NCBI GenBank assembly: GCA_947474495.1
Contig: CANJIM010000004.1
Span: 517 to 64,516, forward strand
Source: Rhodospirillaceae bacterium
Lineage (GTDB): Bacteria > Pseudomonadota > Alphaproteobacteria > SMXQ01
Direction: 5' to 3'
DNA: 64,000 nt
A program made the position numbers and the translations under genes. The notes below the pieces were generated by a model. It searched no databases. It saw only the letters and a program-made list of their open reading frames with translations, and had not been told where the DNA came from. Below are positions 8,996 through 63,445 of the stretch, piece after piece. The first letter of the stretch is position 1. Every line of letters starts with the position of its first letter.

Positions 8996-9013
8996 AGGGC
9001 GATCTTCAAGAGA

Positions 9014-9518
9014 TCAGCTCGCTTTGCGCGAGGAGAGGTAAATCGCCACGCGGGTTTTGATCTCTTCGCTGAGATCGACAGCAGTGCGGCGAATCGCATC
9101 GTTCTCGCTGATCACATTGGCGAAATCGGAATCGAGGACGTTGTAGCTGCTGACCGCCCGGCTGTTGCCGGACATCACCTGCTTGCCGCCGGCAAGCTCG
9201 ATCAGCGTGTAGCTGGCCGTCATCGTCAGGCTGCCGCGTGTTGCCGTCTCATCGGTGCGGACACCGAGGCTTTCGCGGGCGATGCCGACGCCAACCGTCA
9301 GCCGATAGAGCGGCTTGGCGGCGGCGCCGCGCGGCTGCATCTTATCGAGCAGACTGTTGCGAACCAGCTGGCCTTCCCTGTTGGTTATGGTGTCGATTTG
9401 AATCGCCGCCAATTCCGGCGCGGTGACCGACGCGGCGCTGCGCTCGCCGTAAAGCGGGCGGAAGCCGCAGCCGCTCGTGGCAATCAGCGCGAGGGCAAGG
9501 CAGGTTGCGGCGGCGGCT

Positions 9519-9532
<14 letters not shown>
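9014..9532 (-). CDS. lptE: LPS assembly lipoprotein LptE
   Basis: Lipoprotein signal with a lipobox (LIATSGC), ~170 aa, immediately downstream of leuS as in most proteobacteria. It overlaps the leuS end by 14 nt. Confidence 0.75.
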
Positions 9533-12128
<2,596 letters not shown>

Positions 12129-14379: not shown

Positions 14380-14923
14380 ACCGATAAACCTCCGGTTTAA
14401 TCCCCCTGCAAACCTGCCGACGAGGGATCATGGAACAGTGAATTTGGGTCGCGCTACTTGCTTCGCCCCGACACCCGACCCAGGAACCCCCTCGGCCGGA
14501 CCCGTGCCTAAAAGCACGTAGCATGGATAGCCTGCCCCGGATGTGCTTGCAATCTGGGCAAAAAACTTGCCCCAGCACTGTCGCATTTTCGCCACATTTC
14601 GGAAAATTGCCATTTTATCAATGGGTTGACTTGAGGCGGGTGACGCAGGGACCGCCCGGCATCTCGCCGAAAAGCTACATCTCCTTGAAATACATACAAA
14701 AAGTCCGATCACGCGCAAAATAGACGTCGGGCCGGCCTAGCGCGATGCCCAATCTCTAGGTGCGGCGCTCCATCAGACGCTAGATGCTTGGCTCTGACGC
14801 CGCGGGGGCTTTGATCTGGGCGATGTTTTGCCAGGCATCGCGCTTTGTCTGGCGCCGCCAGACGGCTGTGATAAATGCTGACCTCGCATTTTGCCTTTTC
14901 AGATCCGGATTGCCGCACCCACC

Positions 14924-16588: not shown

Positions 16589-16591
16589 GCG

Positions 16592-18259: not shown

Positions 18260-18299
18260 GATAATTGCCGTCCGGCTCGCTCAATTTAGGATCGCTATT

Positions 18300-19025
18300 T
18301 TGTCAGGTTCTCCGTTCCGTGTGTATGTCGGCTGGGACAGCCGTGAAGAGATCGCCTATGATGTTTGCCGCGAGTCGCTGCAGCACCACGCGTCGATTCC
18401 CGTCGAGGTGATCCCGCTCCAGCAAGGCGAGTTGCGCGCGCGCGGCCTTTACACGCGCGACGCCGATCCGCTGGCCTCGACTGAGTTCACCTACACGCGC
18501 TTTCTCGTGCCCCATCTCGCGGGATACGACGGCTGGGCGCTTTATTGCGACTGCGATTTCCTGTGGACCGGCGACATCGCCGGTCTCGCCGCATACGCCG
18601 ATCCGGACCACGCCGCGCGCTACGGCGCGCTCTGCGTGCAGCACGACTATCGTCCGACCGAAACCACCAAGATGGACGGCAAGGTGCAGACGAGCTATCC
18701 GCGGAAGAACTGGTCGAGCCTGATCCTGTTCAATTGCGCCTATCCGCAGACGCGGCGCCTGACGCCCGAGGTGGTCAACCGCGAGAGCGGCGCCCATCTC
18801 CACCGCTTCCAGTGGCTCGATGACGCCGCGATCGGCGCCGTGCCGGAGACCTGGAACTGGCTCGAAGGCTGGAGCAAGAAGCCGGCCGGCGCGCCGCCCA
18901 ACGTCGTGCATTACACGCGCGGCGGCCCGTGGTTCGCCGATTGGCAGAATGTCGACTACGGCGATCTCTGGCTCGCCGAAGCGGCGCGGATTACGACGGC
19001 GAAGTCCGCCGCGCCAGGCCCTTGA
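18300..19025 (+). CDS. Putative small GT-A/DxD-type glycosyltransferase-like protein. The start is uncertain (TTG 18300 or GTG 18321); the track ORF from 18033 is an upstream extension.
   Basis: VYVGWDSREEIAYDVC, a DxD-like CDCDFLW motif and WNWLEGWS. It has no confidently recognised family and is embedded between TPR-GT paralogs 2 and 3. Confidence 0.45.
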   Translation: MSGSPFRVYVGWDSREEIAYDVCRESLQHHASIPVEVIPLQQGELRARGLYTRDADPLASTEFTYTRFLVPHLAGYDGWALYCDCDFLWTGDIAGLAAYADPDHAARYGALCVQHDYRPTETTKMDGKVQTSYPRKNWSSLILFNCAYPQTRRLTPEVVNRESGAHLHRFQWLDDAAIGAVPETWNWLEGWSKKPAGAPPNVVHYTRGGPWFADWQNVDYGDLWLAEAARITTAKSAAPGP

Positions 19026-20893
19026 GCGCGACGATTTCTCAGGCGCTGCAGACGGCGCTGGCGGCGCATAAGGCGGGGCGCCTGGCCGAAGCCCAAGCCG
19101 CCTATGAAAGCATTCTCGGAATCGATCCGGACAATCCCGATGCTTTGCATCTCTCCGGTTTGGTCCGTCTGCAGCGCGGCAATGCCGCCGTCGCGCGCGA
19201 TCGTCTCGCCCGCGCCGTGGCGCTGCGTCCCCGAATGGCGCCTTATCATATGAATCTCGGTCGGGCGCAGCAGGCTCTGGGACTGTCTGGGGAGGCGGTT
19301 GCCAGCTTTCGTCAAGCTGCCGCGCTAGCACCAGGCGAGGGCGCTGTTTGGCAGCATCTCGCCCTCGCGCTGCGCGGCCAAGGTGATGTCGTCGGCGCTA
19401 TCGATGCCCTGCGCCGCGCCGCGCAAGCGGCGCCGCACGACGCTGCGCCGGCCAACAACCTGTCCGCCATTTTGCTGGAACAAGGCCGTCTCGAGGAAGC
19501 CTGGCCGGCGATTTCGCGCGCCCGGTCGCTCGCGCCGGACAATGCCTTGACGCTATGCAACGAAGGCCAGGCGCTGCTGCTTGAGGGGCGGGCCGCCGAG
19601 GCGCTCGTTCCGCTGCGCCGCGCTGTCGTCGCGCTGCCAGACAATGCCATGATTCTCAATAGTCTCGGCGTCGCACTGCAAGATTCGCAACAGGTCGCCG
19701 AAGCGGTTGACGTGCTGGCACGCGCCGTCGCTCTCGCGCCCACGAGTCCCATCCTCCGCGTCTCCTATGGCAACGCGCTGAAAAAGCACGGTTGCTATGA
19801 CGCGGCGCTGGCGGAATTCGAACAGGCCCTGGCAATGCGGCCGGATGTTGCGGAAATTCATTCCCATATCGGCACCTGCCATGACGCGCTTCTACGCCAC
19901 GACGCAGCCATCGCCTCTTATGATCGCGCGCTGACGTTGAAACCCGACTACGCGCGGGCGCAGCAAAACCGCGCGATGACGCTGCTGACGCTGGGCCACT
20001 TCAAGAACGGTTGGCAGGACTATGTCGCCCGCGACAACAAGCCGAACCTGCTGCTGAACTTGCTCGCGTCCCCCCATGGCGCCGACGACATTCGCGGCCA
20101 GCGTGTTTTATTGTGCGGCGAGCAGGGCCTCGGCGACGAGATTTTCTTTTTGCGCTTCCTGCCTGAACTTCGGCGCCGTGGCGTCGCGCGCGTGACCTAT
20201 ATCGCCGATGCGAAAATCGCAGCGCTGCTGGCGCGTTGCGACGGCCTCGATGCGGTGCAGACGGCGGCAGATGCCTTGCCGCCGGCCGAGACGACCATCG
20301 CCATCGGTGATCTGCCGCTGGTGCTGCGGATGACGACGGCTGGGCAGATTCCGCCTTCGATCTCATTGCCGCCTCTGCCGACGCGCATGGCCGAGATCGC
20401 CGCCCGTCTCGCGGCTTGCGGGCCGCCGCCCTATATCGGTGTGACATGGCGAGCGGGGATCGCCGCCCGTCTCGGCGCCTTGTTCAAGCTCGCGCCGCTG
20501 GCCGACCTCGGAACCTGTCTTCGCGTATTGTCCGGCACGCTGATCGCGCTGCAGCGTCTGCCGCAGGAGGGTGAAATCGCCGCCTTAGCCGCCGCCGCCG
20601 GCAAAGTCGTGCACGACCTCACTGCCCTGAATGACGATCTCGAGGCTATGCTGGCCCTGCTGGCGCAGCTCGACGATTACATCGCCGTCAGCAATACCAA
20701 TATGCATCTGCGCGCTGCCGCCGGCCGGACCAGCCGCGTGCTGGTGCCCTGTCCGCCGGAATTTCGCTGGATGGCGAGCGGCGATGAATCGCCCTGGTTC
20801 CCCGGATCGCCGCTGTATCGCCAAGCCGTCGACCGCACCTGGACGGTGGCGTTGGCGCGTTTGTCTGCTGATCTCCGTGCTGCCGTCGGTTAG
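19022..20893 (+). CDS. Modular TPR-repeat glycosyltransferase, paralog 3 (TPR plus GT9-like)
   Basis: The TTG at 19022 overlaps the upstream stop (TTGA coupling). The C-terminal region is ~75% identical to paralog 2 (DDYIAVSNTNMHLRAAAGRTSRVLVPCPPEFRWMASGDESPWFPGSPLYRQA). Confidence 0.7.
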   Translation: MSATISQALQTALAAHKAGRLAEAQAAYESILGIDPDNPDALHLSGLVRLQRGNAAVARDRLARAVALRPRMAPYHMNLGRAQQALGLSGEAVASFRQAAALAPGEGAVWQHLALALRGQGDVVGAIDALRRAAQAAPHDAAPANNLSAILLEQGRLEEAWPAISRARSLAPDNALTLCNEGQALLLEGRAAEALVPLRRAVVALPDNAMILNSLGVALQDSQQVAEAVDVLARAVALAPTSPILRVSYGNALKKHGCYDAALAEFEQALAMRPDVAEIHSHIGTCHDALLRHDAAIASYDRALTLKPDYARAQQNRAMTLLTLGHFKNGWQDYVARDNKPNLLLNLLASPHGADDIRGQRVLLCGEQGLGDEIFFLRFLPELRRRGVARVTYIADAKIAALLARCDGLDAVQTAADALPPAETTIAIGDLPLVLRMTTAGQIPPSISLPPLPTRMAEIAARLAACGPPPYIGVTWRAGIAARLGALFKLAPLADLGTCLRVLSGTLIALQRLPQEGEIAALAAAAGKVVHDLTALNDDLEAMLALLAQLDDYIAVSNTNMHLRAAAGRTSRVLVPCPPEFRWMASGDESPWFPGSPLYRQAVDRTWTVALARLSADLRAAVG

Positions 20894-22069: not shown

Positions 22070-22723
22070 TCAAGCCAAACTCTGAAAATCGACGTCGCCG
22101 CGGTCAACGTCGTCGGCCTTTCGCCTGCGGCTGGTCAATCCATCGATGGCGGCGATCCCGGTCGCGCCGCTGCCGCGCAAGCGGCGGGCGTTGTGTTCGG
22201 CGATGCCGCCGAGCCCGTAGACCGGGATCGAGCTGCTGCGGACCCAGGCGGCGAAGCGCAGCGAGCCGAGCGGCGCGGCGCCGGGGTGGCTCAGGGTGGC
22301 GAACACCGGCGACAGCAAGGCCGCCGTCACGCCGGCCTGCGTGGCGCGGCGCAAGGCCGGGATCGAATGGGCGGCGGCGGTGACCAGCCAGTGGGGCAAT
22401 TTGCGCAGCCGCGTGCCGGCGCGCTGCAGCGCGCGTTCGGAGAAATGCACGCCATCTGCGCCAACGTCGAGGGCCATGCGCATGTCGTCGGCGATCAGCA
22501 GCTTGACGCGGCGCGCAGTCGTCGCGGCGCGCAGGATACGGGCGAGCGCCAAGCGCGATTGCAGTACCAACTCGTGGTGGCGGAAGATGACTGCCGATCC
22601 CGGCGGCAACCTTAGAATGGTGGCTACGGGATCAGGGGTTCTTTGGCTGTCCGTCACGAAGATCAGGCGCGGCAAGGACTCGCCGCCGAGATGCGCGCAG
22701 GTCTGCCGAACGGCGGCCCGCAT
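22070..22723 (-). CDS. thiE: Thiamine-phosphate synthase (ThiE) family protein
   Basis: LIFVTD, GADGVH and IPVYGLGGI motifs of the TMP-TENI fold. The start is set at an internal Met. Confidence 0.6.
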   Translation of the reverse strand: MRAAVRQTCAHLGGESLPRLIFVTDSQRTPDPVATILRLPPGSAVIFRHHELVLQSRLALARILRAATTARRVKLLIADDMRMALDVGADGVHFSERALQRAGTRLRKLPHWLVTAAAHSIPALRRATQAGVTAALLSPVFATLSHPGAAPLGSLRFAAWVRSSSIPVYGLGGIAEHNARRLRGSGATGIAAIDGLTSRRRKADDVDRGDVDFQSLA

Positions 22724-22809: not shown

Positions 22810-23694
22810 TTGTCAGAAGCGCACGCGCCGGGCGGCACAGCAATCGTTTATTATCCCGAAATCAAGCCCTGGATCATTAAGGATTTGGCCGAACGATTCT
22901 GCGCGGAATTCACCAAGCGCGGTCATCGCAGCGCGCTGATCAATAGCCCGCTCGCAGGCTATGACACTTACTATCACTTCAATTATCTACAGTGTCGCGG
23001 CGTCTTGCCCAATACGAAAAATTTCACATACGTCACCCATGTGAATACGCCGGCCAAACTCTCGCTGCTGCGCGGCCAGGCGGAGGCCGGTATCGTCGGC
23101 ATTTGCATGTCGGAAGATACCGCGCGTCGCCTGCGCGAGCTCACCGGATTCAACCGGTTCGTGGGGTTGACGCCGCCGGCGCTGCGCTACGGGGAGTTTC
23201 CCGATCTCAGCATCTTGATCGCGAGCCGGCTCTATGACGACGGCAGAAAAAACCTGACGACGATGAAAGAGGCTTTGGACCGCTTGAGGGGACCAAACAG
23301 CGTTTTGAACATTATGGGCTCGGGCTGGGAAGAGTTCATTGCGGCCTATAAAGATCAATTCAAAGAGATCAATTACCACCCGGTCTTCTCGGAGCGGACT
23401 TACCTGGAGCTGATCGAGGCGACGAACCTGCTAATATACTCAGGATTCGACGAGGGCGCGATCTCTGTGCTGGATTATCTCGCGAGCGGCAAACGCGTTT
23501 TGACGACCGCTCAAGGCTATCACTTGGATTATGCGGATTGCGCAAATCTATATTTGTTTTCCGACGCGCCGACACTCGATGCGCAAATCTCGAAAATACA
23601 AATGGAAATCAACCTCGCTCGGGCCCAGCATAAAAGAGTGACAGACTGGGACGGCTATTGCGCGCGGCATATCGAGCTGTTCGGCAAAAGCTAG
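22810..23694 (+). CDS. Putative glycosyltransferase (GT-B C-terminal-domain-like); first gene of the low-GC island
   Basis: RLYDDGRKNLTTMKEALDRL ... VLNIMGSGWEEF ... YLASGKRVLTT resembles the GT4 C-terminal domain. GC is clearly lower than the genome background. Confidence 0.5.
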   Translation: MSEAHAPGGTAIVYYPEIKPWIIKDLAERFCAEFTKRGHRSALINSPLAGYDTYYHFNYLQCRGVLPNTKNFTYVTHVNTPAKLSLLRGQAEAGIVGICMSEDTARRLRELTGFNRFVGLTPPALRYGEFPDLSILIASRLYDDGRKNLTTMKEALDRLRGPNSVLNIMGSGWEEFIAAYKDQFKEINYHPVFSERTYLELIEATNLLIYSGFDEGAISVLDYLASGKRVLTTAQGYHLDYADCANLYLFSDAPTLDAQISKIQMEINLARAQHKRVTDWDGYCARHIELFGKS

Positions 23695-23695
23695 C

Positions 23696-24631
23696 TCATA
23701 CGGTCGCCGGCGGTTTTCGGTCGAGATAGCCGAGCAGGACATCGACCATGATCTTGCGGTTTCCCTTTAGATGAAAAATGAATTTGCTATCGAGTTGGGC
23801 CTTGTTGTAGCGGACGGTTTCCTCGAAGGAAAAATTAAACCTATCTACGGGAAAGACACAGATCCGGGGCTTTAGAGCTAATTTCGCGGCTTTCTTCTTA
23901 TCTAAGAAAACGCTGGTGATCGTATTGAGACTTAGCTGGCCGCCGCGCCAGCGCCGGATGTCTCCGTAATAGTCGGCAAAAAACTTTTCTTGGACCAACT
24001 TTTCGTATGTCGCGACATACGAATTGAAGAACGCTTTTACCAAACCTGTTCGGGGGGGGGCGGCAAAAATAACCCCTTCGTTGAACGGCATAAGATTAGA
24101 CGCGATTCTTAGCGTTACACCTATATCGAAATTCTTTGTAAACAGGTTGCTCAGGTTCAATCCGACGAAGGTGTCGCTATCGAGAAACGCGGTTTGATGA
24201 TCGAACATGCTCGATCTGACGTAGGCCGCCATCGCATAGGCCCTTTCGTATAGTGGCTGTGCGGCGTTGACGTCGAGGACCACCCTGACAATGTTTTCGC
24301 TTTCGGGAATGTTGAAGTGCGGATCGTTCGATACGAAGATGATTCGCAGATTTTTAAAAAGACGGAGCGTGTTCGATAAAGATTTCCAAATAATATAATT
24401 GTAGTCGTATTTACCGAGATCGAGATTCAAGTCGGGATATTTTAGTAGCTGATTTTCAGGCGCCATCGCGACGTGGAACATAAATATATTACAATTTATT
24501 TCTTCTGCCGCCGCGCGATACGCAGAATTGAAACTTGACTTGAGGGCATCAATTTTCGCATTCGCGGCGGGTTCGGGCGTCAAACTAAAACAGGGTGAGG
24601 CCGCCCTCAATACTTGTTCAATGGGAATCAT
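23696..24631 (-). CDS. Hypothetical sugar-transferase-like protein (low GC) containing a C9 homopolymeric tract in the coding strand
   Basis: 311-aa intact ORF with a DSDTF DxD-like motif and AT-rich codon usage. The poly-G run at 24052-24060 encodes AAPPRTG. Confidence 0.5.
   Translation of the reverse strand: MIPIEQVLRAASPCFSLTPEPAANAKIDALKSSFNSAYRAAAEEINCNIFMFHVAMAPENQLLKYPDLNLDLGKYDYNYIIWKSLSNTLRLFKNLRIIFVSNDPHFNIPESENIVRVVLDVNAAQPLYERAYAMAAYVRSSMFDHQTAFLDSDTFVGLNLSNLFTKNFDIGVTLRIASNLMPFNEGVIFAAPPRTGLVKAFFNSYVATYEKLVQEKFFADYYGDIRRWRGGQLSLNTITSVFLDKKKAAKLALKPRICVFPVDRFNFSFEETVRYNKAQLDSKFIFHLKGNRKIMVDVLLGYLDRKPPATV
24052..24060. repeat. Homopolymeric G9 (C9 on the coding strand) tract inside the CDS 23696..24631
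   Basis: Directly visible as cggggggggg/cgg at 24051-24063. Confidence 0.9.
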
Positions 24632-24668
24632 TTGCTTCTCTGGTTCCGATAAATTTCTTTAAGTGACG

Positions 24669-25448
24669 TTAGTGGGCAACGAGGACGGCATAGCCGTACC
24701 AGGTCGTCTCGTCGAGGCCCTTGTCCGTCATCCACCCACCTGTTTCGCAGATTTTGAAGCCGCAGTGCGAAGCGTGACGTTCAATTTCCGGCGCGAACAA
24801 ATAGCGCATGATATGGGTTTCGTGGATGTGCGCCGCCTCGGATCTTAAACCGTTAGATATGGTCACGTCGTAATGAACCGCCACTATGTTGCGTTCGACG
24901 TCCATCTCTGGCGTCGCGGTGCGGATGACTTGCGTTCCGTCCTTGCTGAGGCTCTTGACGCGTCTCTCGGGCCTATCGTGGAGTACCGCCGGACCGTACC
25001 AAAAATCGAAAATAAAAACGCCTCCCGGCCTTAGAGCGGCCCGTGCCGTCTTGAAAAATCCAGCGAGCGATTCGTCGGTCGTTTGGTAATTGACGACATG
25101 GAACAAGGAGACTGCCACATCGAATATGCCCAAGCCGACAGCGTTCGACACGTCCGCTTGGACCAGCGTCACACGCGGACGCGTGTTTTCTGGAAGACGC
25201 GAGACGCTGGCGCGGGCCAAATCCAGCATGCCGGGGCTTATATCGACGCCCTTGACCACATAACCGGCCGCAGCGAACTGGGTCGTGTGGCGCGCGTTGC
25301 CGCAACCGAGATCGATGATCGATTTTGCCTGCGGGGCGTATGCAGAGATTTTGGCTTTAACGAACTCGGACTCTAAAGCGTAGTCCTTGTCCGTATAAAA
25401 CAGTTCGTAATACAGGGCATATCGATCAAAGATCGCCACGGAGGACAT
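24669..25448 (-). CDS. Class I SAM-dependent methyltransferase, TylM1/DesVI-like (predicted sugar N,N-dimethyltransferase)
   Basis: N-terminus FDRYALYYELFY..KDYALESEFVKA and IIDLGCGNARHT (motif I) match the N-terminal pattern of dTDP-aminosugar N-methyltransferases. Confidence 0.6.
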   Translation of the reverse strand: MSSVAIFDRYALYYELFYTDKDYALESEFVKAKISAYAPQAKSIIDLGCGNARHTTQFAAAGYVVKGVDISPGMLDLARASVSRLPENTRPRVTLVQADVSNAVGLGIFDVAVSLFHVVNYQTTDESLAGFFKTARAALRPGGVFIFDFWYGPAVLHDRPERRVKSLSKDGTQVIRTATPEMDVERNIVAVHYDVTISNGLRSEAAHIHETHIMRYLFAPEIERHASHCGFKICETGGWMTDKGLDETTWYGYAVLVAH

Positions 25449-26544
25449 CCTTCAGAGCCGTCGCGGACCGATCGATTTCGTCCTTGGTCGACCCGACGCC
25501 GCTGGGGAGATAAAAGCCGCGGTCCGCGAGCCGCTCCGACTGGGGGTAGCTCTCACCCGCGAAGAGGCCCAAATCGCGAAGCGCCGGCTGCTTGTGCATG
25601 GGCCAGAAGAAATGTCGAGCATCGACGCCTTTGCGCCGCAGGGCCGCGATCGCGGCGGCGGCATCGAGAGGCGCCTCATCGGCCAGGACGACGCCGAATA
25701 CCCAATAGATATTTTTGGCATAATCTGTTTTTGCCTCGGGCAATCGCAATAGAGGTTGGCTGTCGAGACGCTCCCGGTACCAGCGGCCGATCTGGCGCTT
25801 CTTTTCAATCGTGCGCGCAATGACCTCGAGCTGCGCCACGCCGACGGCGGCTTGGAGGTTGCTCATTCTGAAATTCCAGCCTAGCTCGGCGTGGATGTAG
25901 CGCCGCTCCTTGTCGAAAAATAGGTTTCGCGCCGCGCGGCAGCGCTCGGCCAGATCGGGATCGTCGGTCAAGACCATGCCGCCTTCGCCGGTTGTGACGT
26001 GCTTGTTGGGATAAAAGCTGACCGTGCTGATGTCGCCCAGCGATCCGACCTTGCGTTCCTTATATTGTTGGCCTTGCTGTTCGGCGGCATCTTCGATGAT
26101 CTGCAAGCCCCGCTCACGGGCGAGCGCGAAGATAGGATCCATGTCGACTGGTAGGCCGAAGATATGGACGACCATGATGGCTTTGGTTTTGGCCGTGATG
26201 CGCGCCGCGACTTGCCGGACATCCATGTTCCAGGTGACTGGATCGCAATCGACGAGAACGGGCGTCGCGCCGGCGCGTACGATGGCCGCCGCACAGGAGA
26301 TGATCGTGAAAGACGGCAAGATGACTTCATCGTCCGGCCCGATCTTCAGCGCGGCCACGGCGATGTCGAGGGCGCAGCTGCCGTTGCAGACGGCGATGCC
26401 ATGCTTTCGGCCGACGAATGCGGCGAACTCAGCCTCGAGCCGTTTGACGAACGGCCCCTCGGAAGAAATCCAACCGGAATCGATGCATTCGTTCAGGTAT
26501 TTTTTTTCGTTGCCCTCGAGGAGCGGCCGATTCACCGGGATCAT
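25426..26544 (-). CDS. DegT/DnrJ/EryC1/StrS family PLP-dependent sugar aminotransferase (FdtB/TylB-like)
   Basis: NRPLLEGNEKKYLNECIDSGWISSEGPFVKRLEAEFAAFVG, a typical DegT N-terminus. The start is set at an internal Met (the track ORF extends to 26613). Confidence 0.8.
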   Translation of the reverse strand: MIPVNRPLLEGNEKKYLNECIDSGWISSEGPFVKRLEAEFAAFVGRKHGIAVCNGSCALDIAVAALKIGPDDEVILPSFTIISCAAAIVRAGATPVLVDCDPVTWNMDVRQVAARITAKTKAIMVVHIFGLPVDMDPIFALARERGLQIIEDAAEQQGQQYKERKVGSLGDISTVSFYPNKHVTTGEGGMVLTDDPDLAERCRAARNLFFDKERRYIHAELGWNFRMSNLQAAVGVAQLEVIARTIEKKRQIGRWYRERLDSQPLLRLPEAKTDYAKNIYWVFGVVLADEAPLDAAAAIAALRRKGVDARHFFWPMHKQPALRDLGLFAGESYPQSERLADRGFYLPSGVGSTKDEIDRSATALKDVLRGDL

Positions 26545-26548
26545 GGGT

Positions 26549-26980
26549 TTAATCGAAATTGAATGTGTCGGGCGGAGGACAGTCGAATCGTGTCTTGTCG
26601 TCGTCCCCGACATAGGGGCCTTGTTTGATCTCGACCATGTTCAGCTCTTCGAGCACCTCGAAACCATGACCGCCCGAGATCAGCAGAATGACGTCGCCGG
26701 CGCATAGAATGCGGCTCGTCTTGTACGCGTTGATCTGATCGTAAAAATCTACGCGCAGCCGTCCTTTGCGGATGAAGAGCGTTTCTTGCGTATAAAGAAC
26801 TTCTCGGCGGATAGGATTGTGCGTATGGGCCGGAATCAATTTCCCCGATGGGTAAGACATGGCGCCCATCTGCTGGGAAAAATTATTCTGCGTAAAAAAA
26901 TGAATGCCCGGCTCGTTAAAATCGGCAGGCAGAATAATGGCGTAGAGGATTGAGTCGATATATATGTATTCTTGCTGCAT
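26549..26980 (-). CDS. dTDP-4-keto-6-deoxyhexose 3,4-ketoisomerase (FdtA/QdtA/Tyl1a family, WxcM-like cupin)
   Basis: ~140-aa cupin with HTHNPIRREVLYTQETLFIRKGRLRVDFYD and DVILLISGGHGFEVL. Its size and motifs are typical of FdtA. Confidence 0.65.
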   Translation of the reverse strand: MQQEYIYIDSILYAIILPADFNEPGIHFFTQNNFSQQMGAMSYPSGKLIPAHTHNPIRREVLYTQETLFIRKGRLRVDFYDQINAYKTSRILCAGDVILLISGGHGFEVLEELNMVEIKQGPYVGDDDKTRFDCPPPDTFNFD

Positions 26981-27091: not shown

Positions 27092-27802
27092 ATGATTGCC
27101 CCCTTGGTAGAGACTTCCTCCGACGTCACGATCAGCCAAGCCTTGGCAACTGTGCGCAGCGACATCGCCGAGGCGGTGCGCGCCAGCGGGCGCGAGCCAT
27201 CGGCGGTGACCCTGGTTGCCGTCAGCAAAGGCCACGACGCCGATGAAGCGGCGCAAGCCATCGCCGCCGGCCAGCGCGTGTTCGGCGAAAACCGCGTCCA
27301 GGAAGCGCAAGGAAAATGGCCGCCGCTGCGCGCAGCGCACGCCGATCTCGAACTGCATCTGATCGGCCCGCTACAGACCAACAAGGTGCGCGAGGCGGTG
27401 GCGCTGTTCGATGTCATCCAGTCGCTCGACCGCGCCCGCCTCGCCGACGCCCTGGCCGCTGAAATGGACAAGCAGGCCAAGCGGCCGCGCCTGTTCGTGC
27501 AGGTCAACACCGGCGAAGAGGTGCAGAAGGCCGGCGTGTTGCCGGCGGAAGCCGCCGCCTTCGTGCGTTGGTGTCGCGACGAGAAAAAATTACCGGTCGT
27601 CGGTTTGATGTGCATCCCGCCGGTCGATGAAGAGGCGGCGCTGCACTTCGCGCTGCTGCGCGAACTGGCGGAAGATGCCGGCGTGACGCAGCTCAGCATG
27701 GGCATGAGCGCCGACTTCGCGCTCGGCGTCCGCCTCGGCGCGACGCATGTGCGCGTCGGCACAGCTATCTTCGGCGAACGGCATTATCCGCCGAAGGCCT
27801 AA
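27092..27802 (+). CDS. yggS: YggS-family pyridoxal-phosphate homeostasis protein (PLPHP)
   Basis: LVAVSKGH..., FGENRVQE and alanine-racemase-N-like fold motifs. Confidence 0.85.
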   Translation: MIAPLVETSSDVTISQALATVRSDIAEAVRASGREPSAVTLVAVSKGHDADEAAQAIAAGQRVFGENRVQEAQGKWPPLRAAHADLELHLIGPLQTNKVREAVALFDVIQSLDRARLADALAAEMDKQAKRPRLFVQVNTGEEVQKAGVLPAEAAAFVRWCRDEKKLPVVGLMCIPPVDEEAALHFALLRELAEDAGVTQLSMGMSADFALGVRLGATHVRVGTAIFGERHYPPKA

Positions 27803-29692: not shown

Positions 29693-30847
29693 CTAGAACA
29701 AGTGGCCGCTGCGTTTGGCCTTGGTCTCGAGATAGGCCTTGTTGTGCGCGGTGGCCGGGAAGGCGTGCGGCACGCGCTCGACGACCTCGATGCCGCAGGC
29801 CTGCAGGGCCGCGACCTTGTCGGGATTGTTGGTCAGGAGGCGGACGCGGCCATAGCCCATGTCGCGCAGCATCTGCGCCGCCGGCATGTAAAGCCGCTCG
29901 TCGGCGTCGAAGCCGAGCTGCTCGTTGGCGTCGATGGTATCGGCGCCGCCGTCCTGCAGTTGATAGGCGCGCAGTTTGTTGACCAGGCCGATGCCGCGGC
30001 CTTCCTGCGCGAGATAAAGGAGCACGCCGCTGCCGGCATCGGAGATCGCGGCGATGGCGCCGCGCAATTGATCGCCGCAATCGCAGCGCAGGGATCCCAG
30101 CAGATCGCCGGTGAAACATTCCGAATGCAGGCGGATCAGCACCGGCTCGTCGGCTTTCGGCTCGCCGATGACGATGGCGAGATGCTCGATGCCGCCGTCG
30201 CTCGGGCGATAGGCGACGATGCGCGCGTTCTCCGCGTCGAACAGTGGCACGCGCGCCTGGCTCACCGGCTTCAAGCTGCGCGCGGCGCGCATGTCGTAGT
30301 CGGCGACGTCATTGGCGGAGACGACGAGCAGATCGTTGGCGTCGGCGAAGGCGGCGATGTCGCCAATAATGTCCGGCGCGGCGAGCGGCGCGATCAGCGC
30401 GGTCGGCAGCAGGCGCGCCAGCTTGGTCAGATGCACGGCGGCTTCGGCGCTCGCGATGAGACCATCGGCGAGCGCATAGAGCGGCGGCAGACGAAAGCCG
30501 ATGTCGGACGACGGATCGGCGATGTCGCGCACCGATTGCGCCGGCGTGCCCTCGGCGATCTCCAGCGTGACGATCGTCTTGCCGGCCAGATCCGTGAGGC
30601 CGATGGCGTTGGCGCGTCGTTCGGTCAGCACCAACAGGGCAGGGGCGCGACCGAGTTCGGTCAGGCGGGCGAGGCTCTGCGGCGTCACCGCTTCCGCCGC
30701 CTGCACCAGTAAGGCTTGCGCGCCGTCACGCACGACGACGAGACCGCCGCGGCGCAGATCGGCCAGCGCGCGATCCACCGCGATCAGCGGCTCGTGGCCG
30801 GGGGCGGGCGCGCCGCTGCGCGTGGAAGAAGGGGTCCGAAGGGACAT
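29693..30847 (-). CDS. ribA: GTP cyclohydrolase II (RibA), long form with an N-terminal extension lacking obvious DHBP-synthase motifs
   Basis: The C-terminal half has RLHSECFTGDLLGSLRCDCGDQL and LTNNPDK, which are the zinc and GTP motifs of RibA. Confidence 0.8.
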   Translation of the reverse strand: MSLRTPSSTRSGAPAPGHEPLIAVDRALADLRRGGLVVVRDGAQALLVQAAEAVTPQSLARLTELGRAPALLVLTERRANAIGLTDLAGKTIVTLEIAEGTPAQSVRDIADPSSDIGFRLPPLYALADGLIASAEAAVHLTKLARLLPTALIAPLAAPDIIGDIAAFADANDLLVVSANDVADYDMRAARSLKPVSQARVPLFDAENARIVAYRPSDGGIEHLAIVIGEPKADEPVLIRLHSECFTGDLLGSLRCDCGDQLRGAIAAISDAGSGVLLYLAQEGRGIGLVNKLRAYQLQDGGADTIDANEQLGFDADERLYMPAAQMLRDMGYGRVRLLTNNPDKVAALQACGIEVVERVPHAFPATAHNKAYLETKAKRSGHLF

Positions 30848-31124: not shown

Positions 31125-31838
31125 TTGGCCATGAACGACACGAACGGCGGCAAGACCGGCAAGCGCATCTTTCTGGTGGACGACGATGGCGACCTGCGGT
31201 CGGCGCTCACCGAGCAGCTGCAGCTCCATGAGGAATTCCAGACGGTTGAGGCCGACACGGCGGCCAAGGCGCTCGAGGTGGTCAAGACCGACTATTTCGA
31301 CGCCATCATCCTCGACGTCGGCCTGCCCGACATGGACGGCCGCGAGGTCTGCCGCCTGATGCGCCGCTCGGGCGTCAAATGCCCCATCGTGATGCTGACC
31401 GGCGCCGATTCGGAAGCCGACACGATTTTGGGGCTCGATTCGGGCGCCAACGACTACATCACCAAGCCCTTCCGCCTCGGCGTGCTGCTCGCGCGGCTGC
31501 GCGCCCAGCTGCGCACGCATGAACAAAGAGAAGACGCCGTCTTCACTATCGGCCCCTACAGCTTCCGCCCCTCGGCGAAGCTGCTGCAGGAAGCCGACGG
31601 CAAAAAGAAAGTGCGCCTGACCGAGAAGGAAACGGCGATCCTCAAATATCTCTATCGCGCCAAGGACCATGTGGTCGGCCGCGATACGCTGCTGGGCGAA
31701 GTGTGGGGCTACAATGCCGGCGTCACCACGCACACGCTGGAGACGCACATTTACCGCCTGCGCCAGAAGATCGAGCGCGATCCGGCGGCGGCGGAAATTC
31801 TTTTGACCGAGCGCGGCGGCTATCGGTTGGCGCCGTAA
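31125..31838 (+). CDS. OmpR-family two-component response regulator (receiver plus winged-helix domain)
   Basis: Receiver motifs IFLVDDDGDL and LDVGLPDMDG, and the C-terminal trans_reg_C motif LTEKETAILKYL...TLETHIYRLRQKI. Confidence 0.85.
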   Translation: MAMNDTNGGKTGKRIFLVDDDGDLRSALTEQLQLHEEFQTVEADTAAKALEVVKTDYFDAIILDVGLPDMDGREVCRLMRRSGVKCPIVMLTGADSEADTILGLDSGANDYITKPFRLGVLLARLRAQLRTHEQREDAVFTIGPYSFRPSAKLLQEADGKKKVRLTEKETAILKYLYRAKDHVVGRDTLLGEVWGYNAGVTTHTLETHIYRLRQKIERDPAAAEILLTERGGYRLAP

Positions 31839-31874
31839 GAGCGCGCCTGCCGGGCCGGCTGGCGACCTTCGCCG

Positions 31875-33362
31875 TTGCCATGGGCGTCAAGTTCTTCCAT
31901 ATCTAGCGCCGCGCCGACGGGGCGTTTGGGGGAACTCTTGTCCAAGCATAAAGACGACATTCGCCAGCATTTCGATGCCATCGCGCCATCGCGCGCCGCA
32001 TGGATCGAGAAGAACGCCTTTTTCTACGAATCCGACTGGCGCTACATGCGCTTCCTGATTCCCGAGGGCAAACGCGTTCTCGAACTCGGCTGCGGCAACG
32101 GCGCTCTGCTCGCGCGGCTGCGCCCGTCGCGCGGCGTCGGCATCGACATCAGCCCGCGTATGATCGAGCGGGCGAAGCTCGACTTTCCCAACCTTGAATT
32201 CGTCGTCGGCGACATCGAGGACGCCGCCACCCTGGCGGCGCTGCCCGGCCCGTTCGATTACGTCGTGCTGTCGGACACGCTCGGCAACCTCGAAGACTGC
32301 CAGGCCATGCTCGACCGCCTGCACCAGGTCTGCCACAGCGAAACGCGCATCGTCTGCGCCTATTATTCGCCGCTGTGGGAGCCGGTGATGACGCTGGCGG
32401 AAAAGGCCGGCGGCAAGATGCCGCAGCCGCAGCAGAACTGGTTCTCCGCCGAGGATATCGCCGCCCTGCTCGATCTCGGCGACTTCGACGTGGTGCGGCG
32501 CGAATGGCGCCAGCTGCTGCCCAAGCGGGCCTTCGGCCTCGGCTGGCTGGTGAACTCGACGCTGGCGGCGCTGCCGCTGCTGCGCCGGCTCTGCCTGCGC
32601 CATTATGTCGTCGCCCGTTCGATGCGCCATGTCAGCCCGGACGCGCCCTCGGTCACCGTCGTCGTGCCCTGCCGCAACGAGCGCGGCAATATCGAAGCGG
32701 CGGTGACGCGCACGCCGAAGCTCGGTCCCAAGCAAGAAATCATCTTCGTCGAAGGCAACAGCAACGACGGCACCTATGAGGAATGCCTGCGCGTGCAGGC
32801 GGCCTACCCCGATCACAGCATTCGCGTGATGAAGCAGGAAGGCCGCGGCAAGGGCGACGCCGTGCGCAAAGGCTTTGCCGCCGCCGAAGGCGATATCCTG
32901 ATGATTCTCGATGCGGACCTCACCGTGCCGCCGGAATCGCTGCCCAAATTCGTCGCCGCCATCGCCTCGGGCAAGGGCGAGTTCGTCAACGGCACGCGGC
33001 TGGTCTATCCGTTCGAGAAGGGCGCCATGCGCTTCTTGAACTTCCTCGCCAATCGTAGCTTCGCGGCGATCTTCTCCTGGCTGCTCGATCAGCGCTTCAC
33101 CGACACCCTGTGCGGCACCAAGGTGCTGCGCAAGCGCGACTACGACCAGATCGTCGCCAACCGCGCCTATTTCGGCGATTTCGATCCGTTCGGCGATTTC
33201 GATCTGATCTTCGGCGCCGCCAAGCTGAGCCTCAAGGTCGTCGAAGTGCCGATCCGCTACGCCGACCGCACCTATGGCGAAACCAACATCTCGCGCTTCC
33301 GCCACGGCTGGCTGCTGCTGCGCATGGTGGCCTTTGCCTTCCGCAAGATGAAGGTCGCGTGA
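31875..33362 (+). CDS. Bifunctional class I SAM-methyltransferase::GT2 (DPM1/ArnC/GtrB-like polyprenyl-phosphate glycosyltransferase) fusion protein. The likely true start is the TTG at 31938, which is preceded by GGGGGAA.
   Basis: N-terminal domain has VLELGCGNGALL (MTase motif I). C-terminal domain has VVVPCRNERGNI, ILDADLT and DTLCGTK, typical of GT2 Dpm1-like enzymes. Confidence 0.75.
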   Translation: MPWASSSSISSAAPTGRLGELLSKHKDDIRQHFDAIAPSRAAWIEKNAFFYESDWRYMRFLIPEGKRVLELGCGNGALLARLRPSRGVGIDISPRMIERAKLDFPNLEFVVGDIEDAATLAALPGPFDYVVLSDTLGNLEDCQAMLDRLHQVCHSETRIVCAYYSPLWEPVMTLAEKAGGKMPQPQQNWFSAEDIAALLDLGDFDVVRREWRQLLPKRAFGLGWLVNSTLAALPLLRRLCLRHYVVARSMRHVSPDAPSVTVVVPCRNERGNIEAAVTRTPKLGPKQEIIFVEGNSNDGTYEECLRVQAAYPDHSIRVMKQEGRGKGDAVRKGFAAAEGDILMILDADLTVPPESLPKFVAAIASGKGEFVNGTRLVYPFEKGAMRFLNFLANRSFAAIFSWLLDQRFTDTLCGTKVLRKRDYDQIVANRAYFGDFDPFGDFDLIFGAAKLSLKVVEVPIRYADRTYGETNISRFRHGWLLLRMVAFAFRKMKVA

Positions 33363-34096
33363 CGGGCGACATGCAGAGCGTCGGCGACATCTTCGCTGGC
33401 CATCGCCGCGCCTGGGACAAGAAGCGCGCGCTGCGGCTCTATTACCAGCGTGAGATCTTCGAGCGCATCGTCGCGCAATTGCGTCCCGGTCCGACGCTGG
33501 AGATCGGCACCGGGCCCGGCTTCTTCGCCGATTATCATCCCGGCATGACCGGGCTCGATATCGCCGCCTTTCATCCCGGCGTCATTCCCGGCGACGTGCA
33601 TGACATGCCGTTTCCTGATGCCAGCTTCGCCAATGTCGTCGGCGTCGATGTGCTGCATCATCTGGCCAAGCCCGGCCGCGCCTTGAGCGAAATCGCCCGC
33701 GTGCTGCAGCTGAACGGCCGGCTGGTGCTGGTCGAGCCGTGGACGGGCCCGGTCGGACGCTTGTTCTACCGTTACCTGCATCATGAAGATTGCAGCCCGG
33801 TCACGGAGCCTTGGACGCAGGCCTTCGCCGGCGGCAAGGATGCCATGGACGGCAACGCGATGATTCCCTGGACGCTGTTCGCTGCACGGCTCGGTGAATT
33901 GTCGGCGCATGCGCCGCTGCGCCTCGCTTATTGCCAGCCGTTCGGTATCGCCGCCTATGCGGCGACCGGCGGCTTCAAGGACATCGGCCTGCCCTGGCCG
34001 GTGATCGATGCCTTGTGCCGCATCGAAGCCCTGTTGCCGGACGAGATCCACCGCGTCGCGGCGCTGCGCGCCCTGTTCGTCTTGGAGCGGCTTTAA
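33359..34096 (+). CDS. Class I SAM-dependent methyltransferase (Methyltransf_11-like)
   Basis: TLEIGTGPGFFA motif I. The GTG start overlaps the upstream stop (GTGA). Confidence 0.65.
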   Translation: MTGDMQSVGDIFAGHRRAWDKKRALRLYYQREIFERIVAQLRPGPTLEIGTGPGFFADYHPGMTGLDIAAFHPGVIPGDVHDMPFPDASFANVVGVDVLHHLAKPGRALSEIARVLQLNGRLVLVEPWTGPVGRLFYRYLHHEDCSPVTEPWTQAFAGGKDAMDGNAMIPWTLFAARLGELSAHAPLRLAYCQPFGIAAYAATGGFKDIGLPWPVIDALCRIEALLPDEIHRVAALRALFVLERL

Positions 34097-35907
34097 GGCG
34101 CGAGGGTTGCCAGCTCCGGCAGCGCCGGATCGCGCCGCAGGCAGAGCGCGGCGGGGCCGGGCGGCAGCCCCGTCGTTGGCGAGGCCGTCAGCCAGACCGG
34201 GTTTGCGAGCGGCGAAACCGCGAGGCCGATCTGGGTCGGCGCATCGTCGGCGATTCGGTTCATCAACGGATTCTTCCAGATGTTCGTCGCGCGCACCGAC
34301 GCCGCGCGGAGGCCCCGGCAATCCGCCGCGCCGATCGGACAGATGGTCACCGCCGCCGCGACCCCGCCGGAAAACATCTCGCTGCCATCCGGGCAGCGAC
34401 GCTCCGACGTCAGGATGCCGCGCGGTTCGTGAAGAAGCGCGACGACGATGGGCAGCAGCAAAAGACAGGCGAGCCCCGCCGCCAGCGGTGGCGCGGCGGC
34501 CACCGCCGCCGTTGCCGTGAAGCTCGTCTTGGCCAGCCAGCGTTGCGCGACATAGGTGCCGACGGCGACGAAGGCGGCGCTGAAGCCGTGGGTCGCGGCG
34601 AAGACGCGGCTGCCGCCGTCGCCGAGGAACGGCACCGACAGCAGAATGCCGGCGAGGCCGGCCAGCAGCAGCGCCGAGAGATTGGCGCTGCGGGTGCGCC
34701 AGCAGGCGCCGACGCCGACCAGCGCCAGCAGCAGCACCAACCCGCGCAGCAGCATGTTCGGCACATATTTGTGCCAGCCGGTGTTGATCAGGAAATCGTT
34801 GTAGCGTGCGCCGATGCCCTTGATGAGATCGAATGGCGCCGCCTGCATATGGGCCACGGCGGCGCGATAGGCGCCGGCCGCCTGTTCGGCTTCGCTCATG
34901 CCGAGATAGTGCGGGAAATCGACGAAGAACCGCGTCCAGGGCTCGCCGCCGATGGCCAAGCCGTACAGCGTATAAGCAAAATTGCTGAAGGCGAGCTGGT
35001 CGGGCGCGCCGACCAGAATCGTCAAAGCCTTGTTGGCGGCGAAGCCGACGGCACAGGCCGCGAGGCCGAGTCCGGTCAGCGGCCAGGAGAGCCGGCTACC
35101 CGCGGCGCGAAAGCGCCAGCCGCACCATAGCGCGAGCGCCGGCAAGGCGAACAAGGCCCCGGCGCGCGTCACCAGAGCGCAGCTGAGAAGCGCGAGGCCA
35201 ATGAGGACAAGAACGCGCCGGCCCGACGTGGCCCCGTCGGCGAGCAGCACGAAGGCGGCGCCGCCGAGCGCGAAGCCGAGATTTTCCGACATCGTCGTGC
35301 CGAGCGTCAGATGTATGAAGGCGAACAGCGCGGCAAAGGCGGCGGCGGCGCTGGCGAAGCCGAAGCGGCGGAACAGGCTCGCCGTCACCAGCAGGGCAGC
35401 TGCCATGCTGCCGGCGCTGAGGATCACCACGCTGCGGCGCAAGCCATCCGCCGTGAGCGCGAACAGACCGGCGAGCTGCGTCGTCGCAAAGGGCCGCCGC
35501 GTCGTCCATTCACTCAGGCGTCCGCTATCGAGATAGCGCATGGCGCCGTCGTAATAGTTCTGCGCGTCGGAGGCGGGCAGCAGGCCGAAGAACAGCACGT
35601 CGCTGCTGACGCCGCTGTCCATCTTCAAGGCGAGGGCGATGCCGAAGGCGGCAGCGCCAAGCGCGAGAGCGATAAAGGGGGCCGTGGCGGCGAAGCTGTT
35701 GCCGATCTCATATCGCATGCGTTGAAGGACGATGGCGACGGCGGCGGCGCACAAGGCGGCGCCGACGACCACATTGGCGAATTGCAAAGCCAGCCAGGGC
35801 GCGTCGAACAGCGGACGGCCGATCACGCCGCCGCCATAGCGCGACGCCAGCAGCGGTGCTAGAAAGGCGCCGAGGGCGAGCGCGGCGGCGGCGAGGGCGC
35901 GCCTCAC
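34093..35907 (-). CDS. Large polytopic membrane protein, putative GT-C-fold (ArnT/PMT/GtrC-like) glycosyltransferase. The start is the GTG at 35907, which overlaps the stop of the upstream gene.
   Basis: ~604 aa with more than 12 predicted hydrophobic helices and large loops. The first ~295 codons of the track ORF 34093..36792 are a frame artefact over the flippase-like gene. Confidence 0.5.
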   Translation of the reverse strand: MRRALAAAALALGAFLAPLLASRYGGGVIGRPLFDAPWLALQFANVVVGAALCAAAVAIVLQRMRYEIGNSFAATAPFIALALGAAAFGIALALKMDSGVSSDVLFFGLLPASDAQNYYDGAMRYLDSGRLSEWTTRRPFATTQLAGLFALTADGLRRSVVILSAGSMAAALLVTASLFRRFGFASAAAAFAALFAFIHLTLGTTMSENLGFALGGAAFVLLADGATSGRRVLVLIGLALLSCALVTRAGALFALPALALWCGWRFRAAGSRLSWPLTGLGLAACAVGFAANKALTILVGAPDQLAFSNFAYTLYGLAIGGEPWTRFFVDFPHYLGMSEAEQAAGAYRAAVAHMQAAPFDLIKGIGARYNDFLINTGWHKYVPNMLLRGLVLLLALVGVGACWRTRSANLSALLLAGLAGILLSVPFLGDGGSRVFAATHGFSAAFVAVGTYVAQRWLAKTSFTATAAVAAAPPLAAGLACLLLLPIVVALLHEPRGILTSERRCPDGSEMFSGGVAAAVTICPIGAADCRGLRAASVRATNIWKNPLMNRIADDAPTQIGLAVSPLANPVWLTASPTTGLPPGPAALCLRRDPALPELATLAP

Positions 35908-36857
35908 GAGGGCTGCTCCCCAGGACGGACAGGCAGCTTCAACCACAGGATCGCGCCGGGCAGGCTCGCCGCCAGGATCATCAGGCCGAAAGCGATCGAC
36001 GCGGCGAGAATGTCGCTGTCGGGCCAATCCATGCCGGTCAAGGCGACGACCATCGCGCCTTCGCGCAAGCCCCAGCCGGCGACCGACACGGGGATCATGG
36101 TGATCAGCATGACCATGGGCACGACGGCGAGGCACAGCCAGGCCGAGATCGGCAGGCCCAAGGCGCGGAACAGCAGGAAGAAGATGGCAACGCTCAGCAG
36201 ATGAATGACGAGGCCGAGCGCCAGGGCCAGCCCGGCGGCGCGGCCATCGGCGAAGAGGTGGCGGCCGGTGGCGGCGAGGCTGGCGAGCCACGGCCAGCGG
36301 CCGAGCAGCTTGTCGCAAAAGGCGCTGGCGCGCCCGAGAGTCAGGAACAGCAGGGCCGCGCCCCACGCCGCCGCGAGCAGGAGGATCGCGCTGATGCGCA
36401 GCGTCTCGTTCGGCAACAGGGCGAGGAATTGCGCGAAGCCGACGAGAATCAGCAGGGTCAAGGCGATCACGCCGATGACGCGGTCGAGCAAGGCGGCCTC
36501 GACGGCGCGGCCTAGCGTCATGCCGCGGCGGGTCAGCAGCCAGGCGCGGATCGCGTCGCCGCTGATGAAGGTGACGAGCAGTTGGCTGAAGAAGCCGCCG
36601 ACCAGGGTGGCGCGCAAGGCAAAGCCTTGGCTGATGCGGGCGCCGCACAGGCCGACGACCAGCACGAAGCGCCAGCCGGCGATCGCCACCTGAAGGAAGG
36701 CCAGCAGCAAGGCGGCAGCAACGATGGCCGGATCGAAGCGGCCGAGCGCAGCGAAGGCGTCGCCGAGATCGACGCGCGTCGACAGCCACCACAGCAGCGC
36801 CGCCGTCAAACCGACCTTGCCGGCGATGGCCGCGCCGGCGACGACCCGCTTGTTCAT
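35904..36857 (-). CDS. Flippase-like / lysylphosphatidylglycerol-synthase-TM-domain (UPF0104, YbhN-like) membrane protein
   Basis: Eight hydrophobic segments; WLLTRRGMTLGRAVEAALLDRVIGVIAL is typical of LPG_synth_TM-family proteins that accompany GT2 enzymes. Confidence 0.6.
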   Translation of the reverse strand: MNKRVVAGAAIAGKVGLTAALLWWLSTRVDLGDAFAALGRFDPAIVAAALLLAFLQVAIAGWRFVLVVGLCGARISQGFALRATLVGGFFSQLLVTFISGDAIRAWLLTRRGMTLGRAVEAALLDRVIGVIALTLLILVGFAQFLALLPNETLRISAILLLAAAWGAALLFLTLGRASAFCDKLLGRWPWLASLAATGRHLFADGRAAGLALALGLVIHLLSVAIFFLLFRALGLPISAWLCLAVVPMVMLITMIPVSVAGWGLREGAMVVALTGMDWPDSDILAASIAFGLMILAASLPGAILWLKLPVRPGEQPS

Positions 36858-52603: not shown

Positions 52604-52678
<75 letters not shown>

Positions 52679-63157: not shown

Positions 63158-63445
63158 CCCTGTGCGCCATTTTTTAAGACACTGACCCTTCAATGCGATT
63201 CCGTCGCTCTTGCCGTTCCGCGCCAAATTTCATATACATGCCGGACCAGGCCGGGCCCCTCTGACAGCCCTTCTACGGCTGTGATGTCGGACTGGACAAC
63301 AGGAGTGGCCCGCCGACCTTCTCACTTTACATGGCGGTTCCGCGTCTTTGTGTCAGTTCGCAAACTGATGTGAAGGCTGGCGCGTCTGTGTTCGTGGCGA
63401 CTCGCCGCGCAGGCCCCTCCTTATAAAAATAGTAGCGGGTACGCT

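Follow-up and report, generated by a model that had tools for sequence, protein, structure and literature searches.

What does a methyltransferase fused to a glycosyltransferase do in the company of a second methyltransferase and two membrane proteins? The question is raised by a locus of a Rhodospirillaceae bacterium (assembly GCA_947474495.1), at positions 31125-36857 of a 64,000-nucleotide stretch of contig CANJIM010000004.1 (forward strand, positions 517 to 64,516), here called the window. The interval comprises five genes, for an OmpR-type response regulator, a fusion of a class I S-adenosylmethionine (SAM) methyltransferase with a family 2 glycosyltransferase (GT2), a stand-alone SAM methyltransferase, a 604-amino-acid (aa) polytopic membrane protein resembling GT-C glycosyltransferases, and a flippase-like membrane protein. 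All five open reading frames (ORFs) were found with the domains assigned to them in an earlier sequence-only reading (Pfam, NCBIfam), and they are not chance frames, because each had homologues with E-values from 1e-100 down to 0.

On the basis of sequence comparisons and structural models, the locus probably encodes a periplasmic glycosylation system of the three-component type, in which a lipid-linked sugar would be methylated on the cytoplasmic side. A lipid-linked sugar, its flipping and its transfer by a periplasmic GT-C enzyme, as put forward in the sequence-only reading, are retained in this account; the rarity ascribed to the fusion and the inclusion of the response regulator in the module are not.

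Gene arrangement and start sites

The genes of the fusion (31938-33362) and of the second methyltransferase (33359 or 33371 to 34096) lie on the plus strand, and those of the 604-aa protein (34093-35907) and of the 317-aa flippase-like protein (35904-36857) on the minus strand. Start and stop codons overlap as GTGA at 33359-33362, between the fusion and the second methyltransferase, and at 35904-35907, where the stop of the flippase-like gene overlaps the start of the 604-aa gene. Both overlaps, earlier read as coupled starts, are present in the sequence, and the start of the 604-aa gene was backed by the N-termini of homologues; the second methyltransferase may nevertheless begin not at the GTG overlapping the fusion stop (245 aa) but at ATG 33371, 8 bp past that stop (241 aa), which was also allowed by the gene caller of the source contig and by homologue N-termini. 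For the fusion, the same two sources favoured TTG 31938 (474 aa) over the alternative TTG 31875 (495 aa).

The second methyltransferase gene and the 604-aa gene are convergent, with stop codons overlapping as TTAA at 34093-34096, which leaves zero intergenic room for terminators between the two opposing units. A promoter and terminator scan and an Rfam search gave nothing informative within the locus.

The methyltransferase-glycosyltransferase fusion

The fusion consists of an N-terminal class I SAM methyltransferase (Pfam Methyltransf_23, 6e-18, residues 59-207) and a C-terminal GT2 (Glycos_transf_2, 2e-23, residues 261-390). The best NCBIfam models were AglJ, dolichyl-P-hexose transferase and ArnC, all under their equivalog cut-offs, and the nearest solved sequences of the GT2 half among PDB entries were Pyrococcus furiosus DPMS (5mlz, 5e-18), ArnC (1e-14) and GtrB. 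The AlphaFold2 model of the fusion (predicted local distance difference test, pLDDT, 78.7) had ArnC, DPMS and GtrB as its top Foldseek matches and superposed best on ArnC (root-mean-square deviations of 2.7-3.9 Å over ~235 columns). By both sequence and predicted fold, the GT2 half is thus closest to the Dpm1/ArnC/GtrB-like branch of polyprenyl-phosphate glycosyltransferases, and the assignment made from the sequence alone, of such a GT2 joined to a SAM methyltransferase, agrees with domain models, PDB sequences, fold comparison and active-site motif alike. Both halves look catalytically competent, because the SAM-binding glycines and acidic residue (G72/G74/G76, D91) and the GT2 DAD motif (D346-A347-D348) were invariant in 18 homologues. 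Past the catalytic domain the chain runs on for only ~20 residues, which form one amphipathic helix (474-494); no hydrophobic transmembrane (TM) segment was predicted in the fusion, and C-terminal anchor helices of the GtrB/ArnC type are absent.

The architecture had been called uncommon in the sequence-only reading, and in this it was mistaken. At least 8000 cluster matches were obtained, at ~55-90% identity and many of them at ~65% over the full length, at least 600 stretches with fusion homologues were found in a metagenome scan, and a stock name for the fusion exists at NCBI. In the literature searched, no paper was found on the fusion or on the GT-C family described below.

The genomic company of some fusion homologues points to a different role, that of a cytoplasmic enzyme modifying or terminating a growing polysaccharide linked to undecaprenyl diphosphate, which would add and methylate a sugar much as the multifunctional methyl-glycosyltransferases of ABC-transporter-dependent glycans do, with the membrane proteins serving export or polymerisation. 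WsaE is an example of a methyltransferase-glycosyltransferase fusion, and WbdD of a terminator. One homologue (67% identity) stands beside rml genes and a Wzm/Wzt ABC transporter (locus L006), and others lie among genes for FkbM-type methyltransferases, GT4 and GT2 enzymes (L005, L011). The GT2 half, however, groups with DPMS, ArnC and GtrB and not with polymer-elongating GT2s, no polysaccharide gene cluster adjoins the module in the window, and fusion homologues keep 55-70% identity over soil, marine and sediment samples and in widely differing gene contexts, a notable conservation that serotype-specific enzymes do not usually show. We regard a chain-modifying role as quite unlikely.

The second methyltransferase

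The stand-alone protein encoded from 33359 or 33371 to 34096 is likewise a class I SAM methyltransferase (Methyltransf_11, 1e-11). Its similarity to the fused methyltransferase domain was only remote (27% identity over 134 aa, E 0.04), so that an origin of the two by recent duplication was rejected; because they are so little alike, two distinct methylation steps are suggested. The gene stays close to the fusion. In the metagenome view taken from the fusion (80 loci, many of them on short contigs, so that the fractions given here and below are lower bounds), a homologue of the second methyltransferase lay directly downstream of the fusion in 25 of the 63 loci with enough flank, and it followed the fusion in every locus in which a relative of the 604-aa protein adjoins the fusion.

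The 604-aa membrane protein

Neither Pfam (even at an E-value of 0.01) nor NCBIfam gave a match to the 604-aa protein. Nineteen relatives were returned by a word-indexed search, none with a Pfam domain, and a second such search, with a 45-member alignment as query, brought no additional proteins. Exhaustive profile search retrieved 2185 representatives (50% identity clusters, E≤1e-3), 1328 of them below 1e-30. The protein therefore belongs to a sizeable family that is absent from the Pfam and NCBIfam model libraries.

A confident AlphaFold2 model built on the alignment (pLDDT 86.5, predicted template modelling score 0.89) was compared with the PDB by Foldseek. The top eight matches were all GT-C enzymes at a probability of ~1.0, namely ArnT (5f15), STT3 of several oligosaccharyltransferase complexes and archaeal AglB; AftA, EmbA/EmbB and ALG9 came lower down, mixed with unrelated transporters at probabilities of 0.06-0.2. 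The E-values were weak (4e-3 and up) and the TM-scores were 0.29-0.37, which means that the global superposition of the model is poor. Independent support was given by hhalign, a profile-profile comparison made between the 45-member family and an alignment of PMT_2-type membrane proteins that adjoin fusion homologues in other lineages; the two matched with 96.5% probability (E-value 1e-9). Included in the 152 matched columns are TENLG, RAGA, the RRP motif and the LLPxSDA loop, and the core of the match is the stretch D114-P139 (codons at 35491-35568, minus strand), which holds the invariant Asp (LLPxSDA) and the invariant Arg-Pro (RRP) and is assigned to the first periplasmic loop, EL1.

Within the 45 diverse members, D114, R138, P139, R248, Y315, S424, P426 and R434 were invariant, the first three also in the 19-member set, and E208, D330 and D430 were conserved in at least 90%. 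The model helices, the charge distribution and the Cys-containing C-terminal beta domain, which were used in place of a topology predictor, indicate 13 TM helices with a cytoplasmic N-terminus. In this topology, two clade-specific helices would precede the conserved TM1 (residues 70-98), and the first periplasmic loop would extend over residues 99-155, with two short helices, D114 and R138-P139, the RRP motif standing just before the next helix; every conserved polar residue is predicted to face the periplasm. The C-terminal beta-rich domain (residues 493-604, 34096-34431, minus strand; strands at 510-590 in the model), in which at least 90% of the 45 members share C505 and C589, would be periplasmic too and may bind the acceptor, by analogy with GT-C enzymes that have C-terminal carbohydrate-binding modules (PMC11127046).

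GT-C enzymes are defined by 7-13 TM helices and a small extracytoplasmic domain after TM1 with a conserved acidic residue (PMC11127046), and the 604-aa protein has the corresponding features in its 13 inferred helices, its 99-155 loop and its invariant D114. As judged from profile and model, it behaves as a GT-C glycosyltransferase, and the GT-C-like character and the conserved acidic loop residue expected from the sequence alone were borne out by the Foldseek matches to ArnT, STT3 and AglB, by the hhalign match to PMT_2-type proteins and by the invariance of D114. PF13231 (PMT_2) itself gave no match to the protein and matched only two of the 45 relatives, weakly, at E ~1e-3; in sequence terms the protein is best described as a distant relative of PMT_2 and not a member.

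The family often occurs as two paralogues per locus, in tandem (716 and 723 aa, or 891 and 890 aa) or on either side of the fusion operon; such pairs are found at 7995-9935 and 14102-15775 of locus L011, at 5815-10169 of L013 and on JGI contig 3300043313. In some members the N-terminus is extended by 200-400 aa or TPR repeats are present.

Conservation of the module

The genes were also followed through relatives of the locus, whose identities are given here with respect to the 604-aa protein. In relatives at 57% and 46% identity the same convergent set is present, i.e. the flippase-like gene, the GT-C, the second methyltransferase and the fusion. In a relative at 36%, the fusion, the methyltransferase and two tandem GT-C paralogues form a colinear operon, and relatives at 37% and 29% still have the GT-C adjacent to the fusion and second methyltransferase, in other arrangements. 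A scan of genome contigs returned only two close loci, both in alphaproteobacterial metagenome-assembled genomes. In the 80 metagenome loci, a PMT_2-type GT-C was located within 4 kb of the fusion homologue in 16, and four of these had the full colinear set of flippase-like protein, fusion, methyltransferase and GT-C.

The fusion, the second methyltransferase and a GT-C, of either this family or the PMT_2 type, thus recur together in distant lineages in varied gene orders, often in the company of the flippase-like protein, and the co-conservation presumed in the sequence-only reading holds from 57% down to 29% identity. The pattern is that of a conserved donor-making core with interchangeable GT-C partners, as expected if the GT-C sets acceptor specificity.

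These data bear as well on the supposition that the genes are neighbours of unrelated function and that the 604-aa protein is a transporter or structural membrane protein merely resembling a GT-C. The low TM-scores, the MFS-type transporters among the weaker Foldseek matches and the missing Pfam match are compatible with it, and in two other lineages members of the family occur with no fusion nearby (L004, L013). The transporters, however, were matched at far lower probabilities than the ~1.0 of the GT-C enzymes, the catalytic loop lies within the profile-profile match to PMT_2-type GT-Cs, the fusion and the second methyltransferase still adjoin the gene in relatives at 29-37% identity with altered gene order, and the genes are translationally coupled through start/stop overlaps. 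Functional independence of the genes is very improbable on this evidence.

Beside other fusion homologues, a group of related polytopic proteins of 540-600 aa was observed directly adjoining the fusion gene (L060 11565-13364, L065 94-3243, L086 260-1885 and L094 11457-13106; the L065 frame, from stop to stop, is 1050 aa). They matched neither the PMT_2-type profile nor that of the GT-C family, and the L060 member had no Pfam match. This cluster could be a third partner family.

The flippase-like protein

The 317-aa protein (35904-36857, minus strand), a stand-alone member of the LPG_synthase_TM family also known as UPF0104 or PplT, matched PF03706 at 3e-37 and the TIGR00374 'flippase-like domain' model at 54 bits (cut-off 43), in accord with its earlier designation. 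It is not a full MprF, since the PF03706 domain alone is present and the MprF model NF033480 scored 14.7 bits against a cut-off of 600, and as a candidate flippase it falls outside the GtrA, SMR and MATE families of characterised systems. No match was obtained with phmmer among PDB sequences. In every close relative its gene is a neighbour of the GT-C-like gene, and in 12 of 58 metagenome loci it is located upstream of the fusion homologue. Under the names PF03706 and LPG_synthase_TM, no paper tying the family to a glycosyltransferase was found in the literature searched.

What is known of this protein family gives some ground for a membrane glycolipid as the end product of the module, in the manner of GpgSDF and HexSDF. 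The GT2 would then glycosylate a phospholipid or another membrane lipid, with head-group modification falling to the methyltransferases and flipping of the finished lipid to the outer leaflet falling to the UPF0104 protein; the 604-aa protein would have a different role or use the glycolipid in some other way. The only experimentally anchored bacterial neighbourhoods of stand-alone UPF0104 proteins make GlcN-PG (gpgSDF) and a Clostridioides difficile glycolipid (hexSDF), and in them the UPF0104 protein is presumed to act as flippase (PMC12713373); PplT-domain proteins have been proposed as phospholipid translocators, and many fusion homologues have no adjacent GT-C. Against this, GpgS is a GT4 enzyme (GT-B) and not a GT2 (PMC12713373), and the GT2 of the present locus is closest to polyprenyl-phosphate glycosyltransferases in sequence and fold. 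Its repeated pairing with GT-Cs of two families is, moreover, hard to explain other than by a polyprenyl-phosphate-linked donor, the kind of donor that, to our knowledge, every characterised GT-C uses. A glycolipid end product, although the main rival to the pathway proposed below, is consequently rather unlikely.

Proposed pathway

Periplasmic glycosylation of the three-component type, with two added methyltransferases, remains the account that we favour, and it would proceed as follows. At the cytoplasmic face, the GT2 half would transfer one sugar from a nucleotide sugar to polyprenyl (undecaprenyl) phosphate. The fused methyltransferase domain and the separate 245-aa methyltransferase would methylate this sugar, both acting in the cytoplasm, since SAM is located there and the two enzymes lack TM segments and signal peptides; because a methyltransferase is fused to the very synthase, the substrate is most likely the lipid-linked product before its export. 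The stand-alone protein of the MprF-flippase family would move the lipid-linked sugar to the periplasmic leaflet, where the 604-aa GT-C-like enzyme would transfer it to an envelope acceptor, using Asp114 of the first periplasmic loop and with R138, R248 and R434 holding the lipid phosphate. Lipopolysaccharide (LPS) or O-antigen, another glycan, or a protein are candidate acceptors. The methylated sugar donor or product envisaged in the sequence-only reading is plausible in view of the two methyltransferases; the more specific combination of a methylated lipid-linked donor with flipping by a protein of the MprF family is put forward only tentatively.

Several points weigh against this pathway. 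The GT2 of the fusion is without a TM anchor, unlike GtrB, ArnC and archaeal DPMS; anchor-less Dpm1-type enzymes do exist, and the fusion resembles them in this respect. A profile search of PDB sequences with the 604-aa family gave no match, and hhalign of the family against the single sequence of Escherichia coli ArnT was negative, which is no surprise with one sequence. The GT-C family of the 604-aa protein was missing from all 80 metagenome loci, and most fusion homologues had no GT-C visible within the available flank. The methyltransferases could have a substrate other than a lipid-linked monosaccharide, whose methylation is an assumption of the scheme. Finally, the characterised stand-alone UPF0104 proteins are tied to glycosylated phospholipids and not to polyprenyl carriers, and flipping by them is unproven (PMC12713373).

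Relation to known glycosylation systems

The overall design follows an established template, that of GtrA/GtrB/GtrV, ArnC/ArnEF/ArnT and the undecaprenyl-phosphate-pentofuranose/GT136 system of Citrobacter youngae, in which a single sugar is loaded on polyprenyl phosphate by a cytoplasmic enzyme, flipped by a small membrane protein and transferred by a GT-C outside the cytoplasm (PMC11127046). In such three-component systems the flippase families are interchangeable, the undecaprenyl-phosphate sugar is tailored in the cytoplasm before export by auxiliary remodelling enzymes, and the GT-C may have a C-terminal extracytoplasmic domain (PMC11127046). The parts of the present locus are unusual: the candidate flippase is of the MprF/UPF0104 family instead of GtrA, SMR or MATE, the GT2 is anchor-less and fused to a methyltransferase, a second methyltransferase is added, and the GT-C belongs to an unclassified family that has no Pfam model. 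With PMT_2 (PF13231; ArnT/GT39/GT83-like) this family shares ~150 profile columns, including the EL1 Asp, the basic-Pro motif and the helices that follow, and a PMT_2-type enzyme fills the equivalent place beside fusion homologues in other lineages; the 604-aa protein differs in its two extra N-terminal TM helices and its C-terminal domain.

An archaeal neighbourhood of UPF0104 (arCOG00899), PMT/STT3-like (arCOG00563) and AglD-like GT2 (arCOG00897) genes, for which glycosylation was predicted from genomic context, unites three of the classes found here, namely a UPF0104 protein, a GT-C-like enzyme and a Dpm1-like GT2 (PMC5898192). That neighbourhood differs in its use of dolichol, in its S-layer protein targets and in having no methyltransferase fusion. 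AglD itself has a C-terminal UPF0104 domain (PMC5898192), so that UPF0104 is fused to the GT2 there; in the present locus it has a gene of its own, coupled to that of the GT-C. GpgSDF (Pseudomonas aeruginosa, GlcN-PG) and HexSDF (C. difficile) resemble the module in combining genes for a glycosyltransferase and a tailoring enzyme with one for a stand-alone UPF0104 protein; their glycosyltransferase is a GT4, their tailoring enzyme a deacetylase, no GT-C is present, and the product is a membrane lipid and not a donor (PMC12713373).

The response regulator and the wider window

The OmpR-type response regulator (31131-31838, plus strand; Response_reg 5e-28, Trans_reg_C 1e-21) had been counted in the sequence-only reading as part of the module. 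It stands upstream of the fusion in five loci of the close clade, with two genes between them in L001, and it was absent from all distant versions of the module, for which reason its membership was rejected; it is a syntenic neighbour and at most a clade-specific regulator. It gave no NCBIfam equivalog match at cut-off and has no adjacent kinase. The two intervening genes of L001 (12125-14061), which is the 57% relative (GCA_044226095.1), encode proteins of 123 and 508 aa without a Pfam match. Divergent from the regulator is a 384-aa GTP cyclohydrolase II-like gene (29693-30847, minus strand). L001, L003 and the source contig all keep this pair together, and the space between the two genes showed no Rfam element, FMN riboswitch included. 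The xth gene was likewise rejected as a part of the module, from which it is apart in L003.

Further away, a low-GC islet was observed at 22810-26980 (GC 0.54-0.60, against ~0.65 elsewhere in the window). It contains genes for a DegT-family sugar aminotransferase (25426-26544, minus strand) and a class I methyltransferase (24669-25439, minus strand), with three ORFs of 143, 311 and 294 aa that have no Pfam match, and it lies between a YggS-like gene (27092-27802) and thiE (22070-22723). The islet looks like an inserted sugar-modification cassette, because these two flanking genes are directly adjacent in L003. As a supplier of the sugar for the module it was rejected, being absent from L003 and not conserved with the module. 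In addition, three tandem TPR-repeat proteins (~554, 555 and 623 aa) and a 241-aa ORF are encoded at ~15400-20893 (plus strand), where the GC content of the window is highest (0.72 at 16-18 kb). The only Rfam matches in the window were a terC RNA motif at 63243-63299 (53 bits, gathering score 39.9) and one tRNA at 52604-52675.

Significance

By way of lipid-linked monosaccharides, periplasmic glycosylation shapes LPS as well as cell-wall polymers and surface proteins, and it thereby affects antibiotic resistance and recognition by phages and the immune system. The module would extend the known systems by methylation of the lipid-linked donor, by a further candidate family of flippases for such donors and by a large unclassified GT-C family. 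Beyond this single locus, we put forward only tentatively the existence of a widespread pathway, formed by the fusion, its partner methyltransferase and a UPF0104 flippase, in which a sugar is O-methylated on polyprenyl phosphate, exported by a flippase of the MprF family and installed by interchangeable GT-Cs. If true, this would be the first bacterial role of UPF0104 proteins in flipping polyprenyl-linked sugars and a new route to methylated sugars in envelope glycans, and the family of the 604-aa protein, with >2000 sequence clusters, would be a new GT-C family for CAZy. Since the fusion is abundant and strongly conserved among environmental bacteria, characterisation of one example would annotate thousands of genes now labelled only 'bifunctional methyltransferase/glycosyltransferase' or 'hypothetical protein'.

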